64,000 nt of DNA from Gammaproteobacteria bacterium (GCA_965277405.1 OZ255726.1:864001-928000); one strand, 5' to 3'; positions 21,064 through 32,292 are shown, numbered from the stretch's first letter. Numbers and translations are program-made. The notes: a model not told the origin generated them from the letters alone.

Positions 21064-22067
21064 TTATGTGTTAAATTCAGGGATGATGTGTCGACCATAG
21101 TTAGCGATGATTTTTTCTTCATCGCCGCTGTCTAAGTAGATATTAAACTGGGTTATTCCTGCGGTTTCTAGGTCTTTAATTTTGGCGATATGGTCAGCTA
21201 CGCTACCGAGTACGCAGAAACTGGTAACGATATCATCGGTGATGAAGTCCAAAAAGGGTTGTCACTTTGTCCGTGTTTAGAGTAGTCATACCCTTTACGA
21301 TTGTCGATGTAGTCCGTTAGGCTTTTAGGTACAATTCCTGAATCGCTGCCGTATTTTTCAACGATATCAGCGACGTGATTCCCCACCATCGCCGGGAACC
21401 ATTTGGTGTGTTGTATACAGTAATCCATATCACCAAAATAAGCTGGTGCAGCGGCTAGTACTTTAAAAGCAGACATATCGCGCCCCGCCTCTTCCCCAGC
21501 GCTAATGGCTTGGTTTTTAAACCATGTAATTAGATTTGGGTCGGCAATTTGTAACACCAAGCCATCCCCAACTTGCCCTGCGGTTGCCAGCGCCTTTGGA
21601 CCATACGCAGCAATCCATACTGGCAATTCATACCCCGTCGACCAGGGGAATTGCACACTAGCAGGGCATGCGTCATATTCCACTTGTTCGCCGCGCACCA
21701 TGGCTTTAACCTTAGTGGTAAATTCAGCAAGACGCGCCAAGGTGGCGGGCTTTTTCCCCATAACCCGCATAGAAGAATCGCCGCGACCTAGGGCAATGTC
21801 GAAGCGTCCATTGCTTTGATGCGCCAAACTAGCGTACAAGCTGGCAGCCAATGACCAATCGCGAATATTGGGGTTGGTCACACAGGGACCGAACCTCATA
21901 GTTGTGGTGTGTTCCATACACATTGCCATCGCGACAAACGACTCACGCCATAGAATATGCGAATCATAAAACCAACAGTAATCAAAGCCTGCCACTTCTG
22001 CTTGACGCACCAATTTACGGGCACGATCTGGGCTAACGAACCCTTTAAACGTAATACCAAATTCCAT
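21064..22067 (-). CDS. F420-dependent LLM-class (Mer-like) oxidoreductase resembling the TIGR03842/CPS_4043 family; apparent 1-nt frameshift at 21251-21255
   Basis: MEFGITF, WFYDSHILWRE, GPCVTNP, GRGDS, WIAAYGPKAL, GDGLVLQIADP; C-terminus (DFITDDIV..FCVLG..HIAKIKDL..AGITQFNIYL) continues in another frame after a T5 run; AGAGGA RBS. Confidence 0.85.
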
Positions 22068-22089
22068 AATATTATCCTCTGTGTGTTGT

Positions 22090-22845
22090 TTAAGTCGGTT
22101 TGCAATCACCTTGTTTTGGGGTGAATTCTGCTGGTGGACAGACCCGAATGCCTGCATGGGTGAAGGGTACGTCTTTTGAGATATTCAACCGAATCAAGAT
22201 AGGTGTCAGCGCTTCGATGCAGCGCGCGCTTTCTGCCAAGCCTGCGTTGTAGGCCTTTGTCCCGATTTTTTCGATTAAAGCCATGACTCGTTTTTTCGCC
22301 GCTAGGTTATTGCCGCACACCAAAATGTCGCAATTGATCGAGCGGGTCAGGTCGTTTAAAGTGTCCGCCGCAACATTATGCAACGCGCCTACAACCGCAA
22401 CGCTTTCTCCTAGCAACGCTTGGGCTGATTCCGTAATTGAGCCAGCCGCTGGCATAATTACCGCTTTGGGGTTGCCTGGCACGAGCGGTACCACTATGTC
22501 TACTAAGGTTTTCCCAAGCAGAAAAGGTGCTAATGTTGCAAGTGTGGTATCGTGAGCGCTGTGAGGAACAGCAAGAATGACAATATCATCAGCCGCCTGC
22601 GCAGCCTCCTCCATACTCAAGCCAATGATGTCTGCATTATTATTGTCTGGCTGTTCGGTTAAGATTTTTAGCAATTTTTGCGCGCTGGCTTGGGATCTTT
22701 TTGGATCGCGCGAGCCGAGGACCACGCTGACGCCGGCCATCGCAAAACGCAGTGCCAAACCACTACCTTGTGGCCCCGTGCCACCAATAATAGCGACTTT
22801 TGGCGTTGCTTCTTTCTCCAGTTGTTGTTTCATTGCTGCTTTCAT
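22090..22845 (-). CDS. npdG: NADPH-dependent F420 reductase (Fno/NpdG)
   Basis: [52 protein letters not shown]. Confidence 0.92.
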
Positions 22846-29250: not shown

Positions 29251-30735
29251 ATGACCAGTAAAGCTGTAAACGTAGGTGATTTTTATGAATTAGAGGTTGG
29301 TAACGATCTTAAGCAAAGTACAGCATACAACGACGACTTGGCGCCGACAAAAATAAAACAACGGACTTGGAATAAATGGAATATCGGCGCGTTATGGGTC
29401 GGGATGTCGATTTGTGTACCTACCTATACATTAGGTGGGGTGTTGACCGCCTATTTTGGGCTATCAGTGATGGAGGCCTTGTTGGCAATCCTTATCGCCA
29501 ACATCGTAGTGCTCGTTCCACTCACGTTAAATGCTTACCCAGGCACTAAGTTTGGCATTCCTTTTCCTGTGTTATTGCGGTCGTCATTCGGCGTGGTTGG
29601 CTCTAACATTCCTTGTTTAATCCGCGCTCTCGTCGCTTGTGGCTGGTTTGGCATTCAAACCATGTTCGGCGGTTTAGCGATCCATTTATTCTTATCTGCG
29701 CTTTCAGATGGCTGGGCAAGTCTCGGCGGTTTTGGTGAGGTAATCGGTTTCTTCATTTTTTGGCTACTCAACTTGTACGTGGTCATCCGCGGTGCAGAGT
29801 CGATCAAGTGGATGGAAACCTTGTCCGCGCCGCTGTTGTTAATCGTCGCGATTGGTTTAATGTTCTGGGCAAGCGGGAAAGTATCTTTAATCGAAGTCAT
29901 AACATCACCTGCTAATCGCCCTGCTGACGCTGGCTTTTGGGGTTACTTTTTTAGTGGTATAACGGCTATGGTAGGGTTCTGGGCAACATTATCATTGAAT
30001 ATTCCTGATTTCAGTCGTTACGCAAAATCACAAAAAGATCAGGTTATTGGTCAAATTATCGGGCTACCGCTGACGATGTTCTTTTTCTCAGCTTTAGGCG
30101 TGGTACTAACCGCCGCTTCAATGAGTTTAGTCGGCGAAACAATTGCTGATCCAATTACTTTGATTGGTAAAATAGACAGCCCTTTTTGGGTCGCAACGGC
30201 GATGGTGTTGATCGTTATCGCAACACTTTCAACCAATACGGCAGCCAACATCGTCTCTCCCACCAACGACTTCCAAAACATTGCCCCTAAACACATCAAT
30301 CACTTTCGTGGCGCTGTATTGACAGGCTTAGTCGGTATCGTGCTAATGGGCTGGGAACTGCTGAAAAAAATAGGTTGGTTGACGACTGAGGTAAGTTTAG
30401 AAAGTATGTACTCAAACTGGCTGTTAGGGTATTCCAGTCTACTAGGTCCTATCGCTGGGATCATGATTGTCGACTACTTCCTAATCAAACGTCAGCAATT
30501 GGATTTGGTCGGGTTGTATACCCCAAATAGCGTATACCCTGCTTTTAATAGCTCTGGATTGATCGCTTTTGCCGTACCGGTGGTAATGACATTGATCGCT
30601 TTAAGTTATCCTGCCGTTAATTGGTTCTACAGCTATGGTTGGTTCACGGGAGCATTCACAGGCGCTATCGTGTACTACGTGCTTGCTAAAATGCAAACGT
30701 CTACCTTGAGCCAAGCCACTGCGTTGCCATCTTAA
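29251..30735 (+). CDS. NCS1 family nucleobase:cation symporter (PydP-like)
   Basis: LWVGMSICVPTY, FGIPFPVLLRSSFG, GFWATLSLNIPDFSRY, NTAANIVSP; multiple TM helices. Confidence 0.93.
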   Translation: MTSKAVNVGDFYELEVGNDLKQSTAYNDDLAPTKIKQRTWNKWNIGALWVGMSICVPTYTLGGVLTAYFGLSVMEALLAILIANIVVLVPLTLNAYPGTKFGIPFPVLLRSSFGVVGSNIPCLIRALVACGWFGIQTMFGGLAIHLFLSALSDGWASLGGFGEVIGFFIFWLLNLYVVIRGAESIKWMETLSAPLLLIVAIGLMFWASGKVSLIEVITSPANRPADAGFWGYFFSGITAMVGFWATLSLNIPDFSRYAKSQKDQVIGQIIGLPLTMFFFSALGVVLTAASMSLVGETIADPITLIGKIDSPFWVATAMVLIVIATLSTNTAANIVSPTNDFQNIAPKHINHFRGAVLTGLVGIVLMGWELLKKIGWLTTEVSLESMYSNWLLGYSSLLGPIAGIMIVDYFLIKRQQLDLVGLYTPNSVYPAFNSSGLIAFAVPVVMTLIALSYPAVNWFYSYGWFTGAFTGAIVYYVLAKMQTSTLSQATALPS

Positions 30736-30852
30736 TTAATTTTACTTGTTAGCGTTCTTTTGATAGCTAATGTTTGTATCAAATCATCGCTGATGCAGAT
30801 GTTGTTGCGAAGTGGTTCACTGTTGATTTTAATTTAAAAGAAGGACGGAGCT

Positions 30853-32292
30853 ATGACCCTGTTTATTAAAGGGGGGACTATTGTCACCCACGAAGTAACG
30901 TATCAAGCCGACATTGCATGTGATGGCAATAAAATCACCGAGATAGCTCAGCAAATCACGCCACCGCATGCTGCTGAAGTGATAGACGCAACGGGGAAAT
31001 ATATCATGCCTGGAGGCATCGACCCGCATACCCATATGCAGCTTCCATTCATGGGAACAGTTGCCAAAGATGACTTTGCCTCAGGAACTATTGCAGCATT
31101 GGCTGGTGGCACCACCAGCATTATCGATTTTGTCATTCCAAACCCGCAGCAATCTTTGTTGGAGGCCTACCATAAATGGCGCGGATGGGCAGAAAAATCC
31201 CATGCAAACTATGGCTTTCATGTTGCTATTACTTGGTGGGATGACAGCGTCGCCGCAGAAATGGAAGAACTCGTGAACGACTACGGAGTGAACAGCTTCA
31301 AACACTTCATGGCTTACAAAAATGCTATCATGGCGACCGATGACATTTTGATTCCAAGTTTTGCTAAATGCTTAGACCTTGGCGCGATACCAACCGTTCA
31401 TGCAGAGAATGGCGAGTTGGTGTATTACTTGCAAAATAAGCTCATTGCCGATGGTCTGACTGGTCCAGAGGGTCACGCATTGTCGCGCCCGGCTGCTGTA
31501 GAAGGGGAAGCTGCGAATAGGGCTATCAGCATCGCCAATACTCTAGGCGCACCGATTTATCTTGTCCACGTTTCTACGGAAGAAGCTGTAGCTGCGATTC
31601 GCTACGCAAGAAACAACGGCCAAACCGTATTTGGCGAAGTATTGGCAGGCCACTTAACAGTCGATGACAGCGTCTATCAAAACCCAGATTGGGGCACTGC
31701 TGCGGCACACGTGATGAGTCCGCCGTTTAGACCTAAACACCACCAAGATGCTCTTTGGAAAGCCATACAAGCAGGAACATTACAAACCACTGCTACCGAC
31801 CACTGCGCCTTTTGTACAGAACAAAAAGCAATGGGTAGAGATAATTTTACCCAAATTCCAAACGGTACTGCTGGGGTAGAAGAACGGATGATGGTATTGT
31901 GGGAAAAAGGCGTGAATGCGGGCAAAATTACCCCCAATGAATTTGTGGCGCTCACTTCAACCAATACCGCGAGAATATTCAATATATACCCAGACAAAGG
32001 TACAGTTGCGGTCGATGCTGATGCAGATTTGGTCATTTGGAATCCAACGGCGAGCAAAACCCTCTCCGCCAAAACGCAGCAATCCAGCATAGAATTCAGT
32101 ATCTTTGAAGGCATGGAAATTCATGGTATTCCAGAAACCACCATCTGTAACGGCAAGCTAGCGTGGCACGATGGCAGGCTCGCCGCCCAATCTGGAGACG
32201 GACAATACATCAACAGACCACCGTATGCACCCTTCTACTCAGCCCTAAAAAAACGCCAACAAATGTGTAAACCAAAGGCTGTATTACGCTGA
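30853..32292 (+). CDS. hydA: Dihydropyrimidinase (D-hydantoinase)
   Basis: [50 protein letters not shown]. Confidence 0.95.

Follow-up and report, generated by a model that had tools for sequence, protein, structure and literature searches.

A ten-gene island in a gammaproteobacterial genome

We analyzed a 64,000-nucleotide stretch of the genome of a Gammaproteobacteria bacterium (GCA_965277405.1, OZ255726.1:864001-928000), referred to here as the window, with positions counted from its first letter. Within it lies an island of ten genes, ~11 kb long (21064..32292), in which genes for the synthesis and reduction of the rare cofactor F420 and for a luciferase-like F420-dependent oxidoreductase (LLM) sit beside genes predicted to act in reductive pyrimidine catabolism. 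A preliminary description had read the island as an operon, cofG-cofH-cofD-cofC-cofE-npdG-LLM, divergent from genes for a beta-ureidopropionase, an NCS1 permease, and a dihydropyrimidinase. Listing of open reading frames (ORFs) together with family scans, in which NCBIfam bit scores were read against the curated cut-off of each model, recovered all ten genes in their places and in exactly that order.

The minus-strand operon starts with cofG (26485..27762; TIGR03550, 449 bits, cut-off 213) and cofH (25286..26491; TIGR03551, 489 bits, cut-off 374), which encode radical-SAM subunits of FO synthase. It continues with cofD (24333..25292; 2-phospho-L-lactate transferase; TIGR01819, 280 bits, cut-off 257), cofC (23626..24333; guanylyltransferase, with 2-PL, PEP, or 3-PG as candidate substrates; TIGR03552, 153 bits, cut-off 105), cofE (22842..23633; F420-0:L-glutamate ligase; TIGR01916, 256 bits, cut-off 181), npdG, also called fno (22090..22845; NADPH-dependent F420 reductase, Fno; TIGR01915, 194 bits, cut-off 150), and finally the LLM gene (21064..22067; TIGR03842). 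Each of the six genes ahead of the LLM gene thus lies above its equivalog cut-off. CofE has 263 residues and lacks an FbiB-type C-terminal domain. Neighboring genes on this strand overlap by 1–8 nucleotides, the exception being a 22-nucleotide gap between fno and the LLM gene. Because the TIGR03550 match starts only at residue 81 of the product, the real start of cofG probably lies downstream of 27762; as annotated, the gene is 115 nucleotides away from the first gene of the plus strand.

This first plus-strand gene encodes an M20 hydantoinase/carbamoylase-family amidase (27877..29208; NF006769, 580 bits, cut-off 452; TIGR01879, 405 bits), with a proposed role as the beta-ureidopropionase PydC. 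It is followed by a gene for an NCS1 nucleobase:cation symporter (29251..30735; PF02133, 311 bits; TIGR00800, 319 bits, under the cut-off of 353), with a proposed role in uptake of uracil/thymine or dihydropyrimidines, and by the dihydropyrimidinase gene hydA/pydB (30853..32292), whose product scores 578 bits against the TIGR02033 equivalog (cut-off 393). The island is set among housekeeping genes, the left side being formed by leuS, a 171-residue ORF, and holA and the right side by fur, lpxC, and sbcB. The G+C content is 46–48% in the island versus 41–45% in the flanks.

The LLM gene is split in the assembly

A frameshift in the LLM gene, which the preliminary description had implied, is indeed seen. 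The gene consists of a main frame (21198-22157) and a tail frame (21064-21261) that meet around a run of five A at 21251..21255 (five T on the coding strand). In contigs derived from the reads of three public sequencing runs, this run has six A, and the extra A behind position 21250 is carried at full depth (32.3/32.3 in run X1, 301.1/301.1 in X2, and 2/2 in X3). Six T on the coding strand yield the residues NPFLDF, which also stand at the shift site of an intact 334-residue protein in the protein database (P0002) that is identical to the LLM over the 268 residues compared. Against TIGR03842 (cut-off 295), the first frame alone scores 419 bits over profile positions 1–268 of 329, and P0002 scores 510 bits over positions 1–329. 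Since the run contigs carry the extra base at full depth, the break is most likely a homopolymer error of the assembly, and the gene is probably intact. In run X1, moreover, the M20 gene has a 9-nucleotide in-frame insertion close to its 5' end (27928), and ~20 single-nucleotide polymorphisms are spread over the island, so that this run appears to contain a second strain.

The LLM belongs to TIGR03842 and resembles F420-dependent enzymes

In its intact form the LLM passes the TIGR03842 cut-off over the full length of the model. Its score of 105 bits against the Mer model falls short of the cut-off of 276, indicating that it is not Mer. All nine of its sequence matches in the PDB are F420-dependent (Mer, fHMAD, Adf, and FGD), with Mer the best at an E value of 1e-24. 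An AlphaFold model of the LLM (pLDDT 91.6, pTM 0.90) was compared with PDB structures using Foldseek, and the 16 top-ranked chains were all F420-dependent LLMs (Mer, Adf, FGD2, and FGD1), with a TM score of 0.80 to Mer; luciferases and monooxygenases that depend on flavin mononucleotide (FMN) ranked below them. Measured against both TIGR03842 and Mer, the protein is therefore a member of the former, and among solved structures Mer and further F420 enzymes stand closest to it; it is predicted to use F420 rather than FMN. The family scans found neither the DHO_dh/FMN domain nor the iron-sulfur (Fe-S) domains of PreA in the LLM. RefSeq names the TIGR03842 family after the model only.

Mer (PDB 1z69, 1f07, and 8qpl) is the closest solved relative by both sequence and fold, and it is an F420H2-dependent hydride transferase, as we propose for the LLM. 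The two differ in that they share only 24–27% identity, the hosts of the LLM are neither methanogens nor methylotrophs, and its gene lies among those of pyrimidine catabolism. RutA, the FMN-dependent LLM pyrimidine monooxygenase of the RutR-controlled Rut pathway, is likewise an LLM-fold enzyme acting on uracil, but its reaction is oxygenolytic, whereas the downstream enzymes of the island belong to the reductive route. No Rut-family model is present among the 16 NCBIfam matches of the LLM.

The LLM travels with pyrimidine-pathway genes

A scan covering one genome per species returned 375 stretches encoding a relative of the LLM, and the best 80 (74–88% identity) were taken for neighborhood counts. 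All 80 are from Gammaproteobacteria, including Marinomonas, Oceanospirillum, Vibrio, Halomonas, Colwellia, and Thalassolituus. No protein of the module is better conserved across these loci than the LLM, at 74–90% identity compared with 37–66% for CofC. The LLM gene is immediately preceded by cofH, cofD, cofC, cofE, and fno in 77–78 of the 80 loci, which is indirect evidence that the enzyme uses F420 rather than FMN. The M20 amidase is encoded in 60 of them and NCS1 in 52, and a class-III aminotransferase with an aldehyde dehydrogenase in 18. Sixteen loci (among L060-L081 in our numbering) include pntA-pntB for the proton-translocating transhydrogenase, which fits a built-in supply of NADPH for Fno. 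At least one pyrimidine-pathway neighbor was present in 77 of the 80 loci, and the other three loci are truncated. hydA frequently lies just outside the 10-kb flank examined; comparison of coordinates in seven loci on long contigs or whole chromosomes placed it within ~15 kb of the LLM gene in each. No other candidate reductase recurs among the 80 loci.

The preliminary description had mentioned an association of this LLM family with hydA in other genomes. That association is real and is found in Gammaproteobacteria, in Alphaproteobacteria, in a Streptomyces, and in high-GC metagenome contigs. Ten plasmid records from the alphaproteobacterial genus Leisingera (175–253 kb) match the LLM at ~73% identity, and the one examined (L181) carries NCS1-hydA-M20-aminotransferase-pntB-pntA divergent from cofGHDCE-npdG-LLM-TetR. 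A distant clade, only 42–45% identical to the island LLM and still assigned to TIGR03842 at 574–583 bits, was examined in 80 high-GC metagenome contigs, 37 of which have more than 3.2 kb of upstream DNA. Among these 37, HydA is encoded at most 4 kb upstream of the LLM gene in 36, and a coenzyme A (CoA)-acylating methylmalonate-semialdehyde dehydrogenase directly upstream of it in 33. Neither PreA, PreT, nor cof genes were found in any of the 80 distant-clade contigs. One clean locus of this clade encodes a nitrilase-type carbamoylase, a dihydropyrimidinase (527 bits), a methylmalonate-semialdehyde dehydrogenase (706 bits), the LLM, and an ABC transporter, and on a Streptomyces replicon of the clade the LLM gene follows hydA after 18 nucleotides. 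The link recurs in all of these lineages and thus outlasts a deep split in the family, a swap between two nonhomologous types of beta-ureidopropionase, and the gain or loss of adjacent cof genes.

The LLM and PreA are near-exclusive partners of HydA

In the reductive pathway as it is known, the LLM's proposed role belongs to PreT/PreA. HydA was above cut-off in all 50 LLM genomes tested by whole-genome search, and 49 of the 50 lack PreA. The remaining genome, which has a PreA-like second DHO_dh gene, is a Colwellia metagenome-assembled genome (L179, G036:C1; L065) whose PreA scores 690–692 bits against NF006183. Its PreA is encoded in a separate canonical hydA/preT-preA-NCS1-M20 cluster, the cof-fno-LLM module has its own hydA, and the two HydA copies are 74% identical.

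A sample of 101 genomes from the family containing Halomonas served as a control; as these are kin genomes, the counts describe the sample rather than forming a statistical test. The LLM occurred in six of them and HydA in 47. In 32 of the 41 genomes with HydA but no LLM, a PreA-like gene lies within ~3.2 kb of hydA; the other nine have only a lower-scoring HydA paralogue (462–551 bits). When HydA scores at least 565 bits (38 genomes), it is accompanied by PreA in 32 and by the LLM in six, never by both and never by neither. Beside hydA, then, the two reductases are nearly exclusive of each other, and intact preTA, whose routine co-occurrence with these loci had been set out beforehand as evidence against a replacement, accompanies the LLM in a single genome of 50.

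One locus also shows a replacement in position. A Pseudomonadales locus (L180) has NCS1, a hydA-LLM pair with a 41-nucleotide gap, and genes for a RutR-like protein and M20, with its cof genes on another contig. In a canonical locus (L178), hydA-preT-preA adjoins a RutR-like gene, and the LLM gene of L180 takes the position of preT-preA. The L180 contig also encodes a second F420-type LLM (L180:2548-3504, minus strand; TIGR03564, 326 bits), ~5.8 kb upstream of the first and with an ISNCY transposase nearby, and some carriers therefore have further F420 users.

Between clusters of the LLM type and of the PreA type, HydA is 62–75%, M20 55–71%, and NCS1 69–74% identical, apart from the NCS1 of three other LLM-type loci (L057, L060, and L180), which is only ~39% identical. 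For the island itself, the corresponding values against canonical preT-preA clusters are 71% for M20, 69% for NCS1, and 62–65% for HydA. For the genes conserved to this degree, we regard the hydrolytic half as the same pathway, built from orthologous genes, with only the reductase differing. LLM-type clusters and the PreT/PreA (Pyd) pathway have the predicted hydrolytic enzymes, the permease, the RutR-like regulator, and the expected products in common. They differ in the route of electrons, which in PreT/PreA runs from NAD(P)H through flavin adenine dinucleotide and Fe-S clusters to FMN and in the LLM route would run from NADPH through Fno to F420H2. The slot of PreT/PreA would be occupied by the LLM, a nonhomologous TIM barrel without Fe-S or flavin domains, and five cofactor-biosynthesis genes belong to the LLM module.

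The genome has no PreA and one recognizable consumer of F420

The genome is a single contig of 2.17 Mb, is 98% complete, and is the sole member of its order among 199,900 species compared. The absence of PreTA, first remarked for the window, is borne out, and for PreA it extends to the whole genome: no PreA was found in either, the best NF006183 score in the whole-genome search being 42.7 bits against a cut-off of 335, and only one of the 14 control genomes scoring above this cut-off. The single DHO_dh gene of the genome encodes PyrD (347 residues), and the only PreT-like match is a gene elsewhere in the genome with 32% identity. The genome encodes one LLM in total, and the search for other F420-dependent enzymes in it revealed no Pyridox_ox_2 protein and no photolyase; its one PNPOx protein, of 210 residues, is probably PdxH. 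The model for F420H2 quinone reductase (PF04075) found no match in the genome, but it also found none in the controls. Fno and the LLM are the only recognizable F420 enzymes of this genome, and the five biosynthetic genes therefore appear to serve one user. In a 250-genome sample of the class, the LLM was absent from all 249 other scored genomes.

The island had been called self-contained. For this genome the term goes slightly too far, because the RutR-like regulator common in relatives is missing and the steps that concern beta-alanine are encoded elsewhere in the genome or are uncertain. A homologue of methylmalonate-semialdehyde dehydrogenase, 57% identical to that of related loci, and PntAB are both encoded elsewhere, and the best aminotransferase match in the genome is only 32% identical.

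Relatives carry a RutR-like regulator and candidate operators

A TetR-family gene whose product has a YcdC/RutR-type C-terminal domain (TetR_N + TetR_C_3) occurs in 74 of the 80 related loci (69 by ORF clustering). Against the RutR equivalog (cut-off 368), these RutR-like proteins reach 170 bits and thus stay under the cut-off. We searched for boxes with at most three mismatches to the consensus of the E. coli RutR box and found 306 such palindromes in the 80 loci compared with 56–68 in shuffled sequences. The boxes are concentrated shortly before cofG: of 74 loci, 67 have at least one in the 450 nucleotides preceding this gene, and 38 have two, versus 2/74 with one in shuffled controls. If the RutR-like proteins act as RutR does, F420 synthesis in the relatives would be switched on by uracil or thymine. 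By this analogy, pyrimidine induction is suggested for those relatives that keep the RutR-like repressor.

A proposed pathway and its alternatives

We propose that the island forms a complete module for reductive pyrimidine catabolism, with a nonhomologous, Mer-like, F420H2-dependent LLM of TIGR03842 in place of PreT/PreA, the Fe-S flavoprotein dihydropyrimidine dehydrogenase, and we put the probability of this reading at about 0.8. In the proposed pathway, the NCS1 permease would take up uracil or thymine, and Fno would reduce F420 with NADPH. The LLM would then reduce the C5=C6 bond with a hydride taken from F420H2, yielding 5,6-dihydrouracil or dihydrothymine; if dihydropyrimidine dehydrogenase is a guide, the hydride would go to C6, with protonation at C5. 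HydA would open the ring to the N-carbamoyl-beta-amino acid, from which the M20 amidase would release beta-alanine or beta-aminoisobutyrate, NH3, and CO2. The suggestion that the LLM is a uracil/thymine reductase standing in for PreTA, made from this one locus, is strongly supported by comparative genomics through the distribution and position of the gene. We further propose that cofGHDCE belongs to the module because the host has no other source or use of F420, and that the module, for this reason, is transferred from genome to genome as one piece, together with the supply of its cofactor.

We lean, with noticeably less assurance, toward a wider proposal. According to it, cofGHDCE-fno-LLM is a mobile module of cofactor and enzyme that serves pyrimidine catabolism alone, F420 in many Proteobacteria is a single-enzyme cofactor inducible by uracil or thymine, and TIGR03842 is a new Fe-S-free F420H2:dihydropyrimidine oxidoreductase that has repeatedly displaced PreTA.

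Several observations weigh against the replacement of PreT/PreA or narrow its basis. The substrate and cofactor of the LLM are predicted from comparative evidence, and the direction of its reaction is likewise a prediction. The gene is frameshifted in this assembly, and the three runs that carry the extra base come from one study that may include the source sample of the genome, and hence are not independent proof. No RutR-like gene was found in the window or the genome, and the intergenic region between cofG and the M20 gene contains no RutR box at up to three mismatches. One genome of 50, the Colwellia genome above, carries both systems. The 80 loci are the closest of 375 matches and are neither a random nor a phylogenetically independent sample. 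Finally, on the Paracoccus alcaliphilus plasmid p402633 (L182), three genes for an ABC transporter come after cofGHDCE-npdG-LLM in the place of pyrimidine hydrolases, and no hydA was found on this 403-kb plasmid, the rest of that genome not having been searched. The plasmid version of the module may differ in its uptake system or in its substrate.

The gene neighborhoods demonstrate membership in a pathway but not the step, and it is conceivable, though improbable, that the LLM acts on another step or substrate of the same pathway while uracil is reduced by an unrecognized enzyme. Examples would be an F420H2-dependent reduction of malonate semialdehyde to 3-hydroxypropionate, in line with the distant-clade LLM genes that directly follow a semialdehyde dehydrogenase gene, or the reduction of a modified pyrimidine. 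The either/or pattern, however, is specifically with PreA, and the LLM gene takes the preT-preA position after hydA. Moreover, the semialdehyde step is already covered by methylmalonate-semialdehyde dehydrogenase in the same operons, and no alternative candidate reductase recurs in the 80 loci. A different pathway altogether appears unlikely to us. In it, the compounds broken down through hydA-M20-NCS1 would be hydantoins, N-carbamoyl amino acids, or relatives of allantoin, and a related heterocycle would be reduced by the LLM. NCBIfam labels the best M20 model (NF006769, at the subfamily level) 'allantoate amidohydrolase', the named matches of NCS1 are allantoin permeases (scoring under their cut-offs), and one study puts forward a putative F420 LLM as a reductase of the uric-acid pathway in Chloroflexota (PMC12507026). 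Yet HydA passes the dihydropyrimidinase equivalog (578 versus 393), orthologues of the same HydA, M20, and NCS1 adjoin preT-preA in canonical clusters, and the recurrent neighbors are RutR-like regulators, class-III aminotransferases, and (methyl)malonate-semialdehyde dehydrogenases.

The remaining two explanations concern whether the module works, or works on pyrimidines, at all. Decay of the module in this genome, with the LLM a true pseudogene and the regulator lost during genome reduction, would account for the frameshift in the assembly and for the missing RutR-like gene, and would suit a genome that is small and rich in a dispersed repeat (at least 161 copies). We consider it very unlikely: the contigs of all three runs that cover the site have the extra base at full depth, an identical intact protein is on record, and the remaining nine genes are intact. 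Least probable of all, and hardly credible in our judgment, is that the function of F420 and the LLM has nothing to do with pyrimidines and that their genes only happen to accompany those of the pathway, as the one plasmid with cof-fno-LLM and no hydA on record might suggest. Against such hitch-hiking, the link is present in three lineages, with an M20 or a nitrilase-type beta-ureidopropionase and with or without adjacent cof genes; RutR-type boxes stand in front of cofG; and the distribution is complementary to that of PreA. Taken with these comparisons, a known pathway with a new, nonhomologous first enzyme that brings its own cofactor genes is very probably what the module represents.

Further features of the locus

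A perfect 22-bp tandem duplication, detected by a repeat search, lies at 27742..27785, in the control region from which cofG and the M20 gene diverge. It overlaps the annotated cofG start, and the run contigs show a two-allele bubble at 27670-27781. A scan for regulatory signals was uninformative, giving 17 promoter-like sites versus 17.9 expected and 23 terminator-like sites versus 13.4 expected.

Both ends of the island abut terminal pieces of one dispersed repeat family, at 21021..21047 (plus strand) on the left and, inverted, at 32313..32365 (minus strand) on the right. Counted at up to three mismatches, the repeat occurs at least 161 times in the genome, in two sub-variants, with a conserved terminus followed by unrelated sequence. 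Its abundance and the 2.17-Mb genome size suggest proliferation of a miniature inverted-repeat transposable element or an insertion sequence in a reduced genome. Read joints from ~21046 to ~32311-32321 were considered as an island-free allele, which we rejected, the shorter side of each joint being only 18–27 letters long; because both island ends abut repeat termini, other copies of the repeat mimic a junction, and the repeat also explains the raised depth.

Outside the island, 3.4 kb downstream of hydA and separated from it by fur, lpxC, and sbcB, a plus-strand gene (35650-36819) encodes a RihA/UriH-like pyrimidine ribonucleoside hydrolase (329 bits, under the cut-off of 433) that could supply uracil to the island.

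Discussion

A search of the full-text literature, with subscription-only papers outside its scope, found no paper on F420-dependent reduction of uracil or thymine in catabolism. A 2021 review of F420 (PMC8498797) lists why Proteobacteria synthesize this cofactor as an open question, states that no F420H2-dependent reductase has been experimentally studied in bacteria outside Actinobacteria, and notes that Paracoccus denitrificans and Oligotropha carboxidovorans make no more than traces of F420 when grown in the laboratory; the words 'uracil' and 'hydantoin' do not occur in it. RutR-type repression in the absence of pyrimidines could explain the trace amounts, provided that both species carry the cassette.

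Two proposals from other systems come close to ours. For the mureidomycins, the genetic evidence of one study points to reduction of the uracil C5=C6 bond by a putative F420/FMN oxidoreductase (PMC10714638), and this reduction of the uracil ring provides a chemical precedent for the proposed LLM reaction. The uracil-ring reductase concerned, SSGG-03002/NpsU of mureidomycin/napsamycin formation, acts in biosynthesis, where it tailors a nucleoside antibiotic of Streptomyces, and its in vitro assay failed. Homology to TIGR03842 could not be established from this source. The uric-acid LLM of Chloroflexota (PMC12507026) is likewise an F420 LLM proposed from gene neighborhoods to replace a reductase, in that case a PydA-like/YgfK-like one. 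It differs in belonging to a purine pathway, another phylum, and presumably another LLM subfamily, and is a bioinformatic proposal only.

If the proposed replacement is correct, it would add a new activity, F420-dependent dihydropyrimidine dehydrogenase, to a textbook pathway and would assign a function to the TIGR03842 family. It would also be a clear case of nonhomologous displacement, the incoming enzyme being accompanied by five genes for the synthesis of its cofactor, and it would explain the patchy, plasmid-borne F420 genes of marine Alpha- and Gammaproteobacteria. As to why some proteobacteria synthesize F420, the locus and its relatives offer a testable answer that involves a single enzyme, a single pathway, and a single likely inducer. 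For the organism studied here, the retention of ~7.7 kb for a single reaction in a reduced genome of 2.17 Mb suggests that pyrimidines are an important source of nitrogen or of beta-alanine, a CoA precursor.

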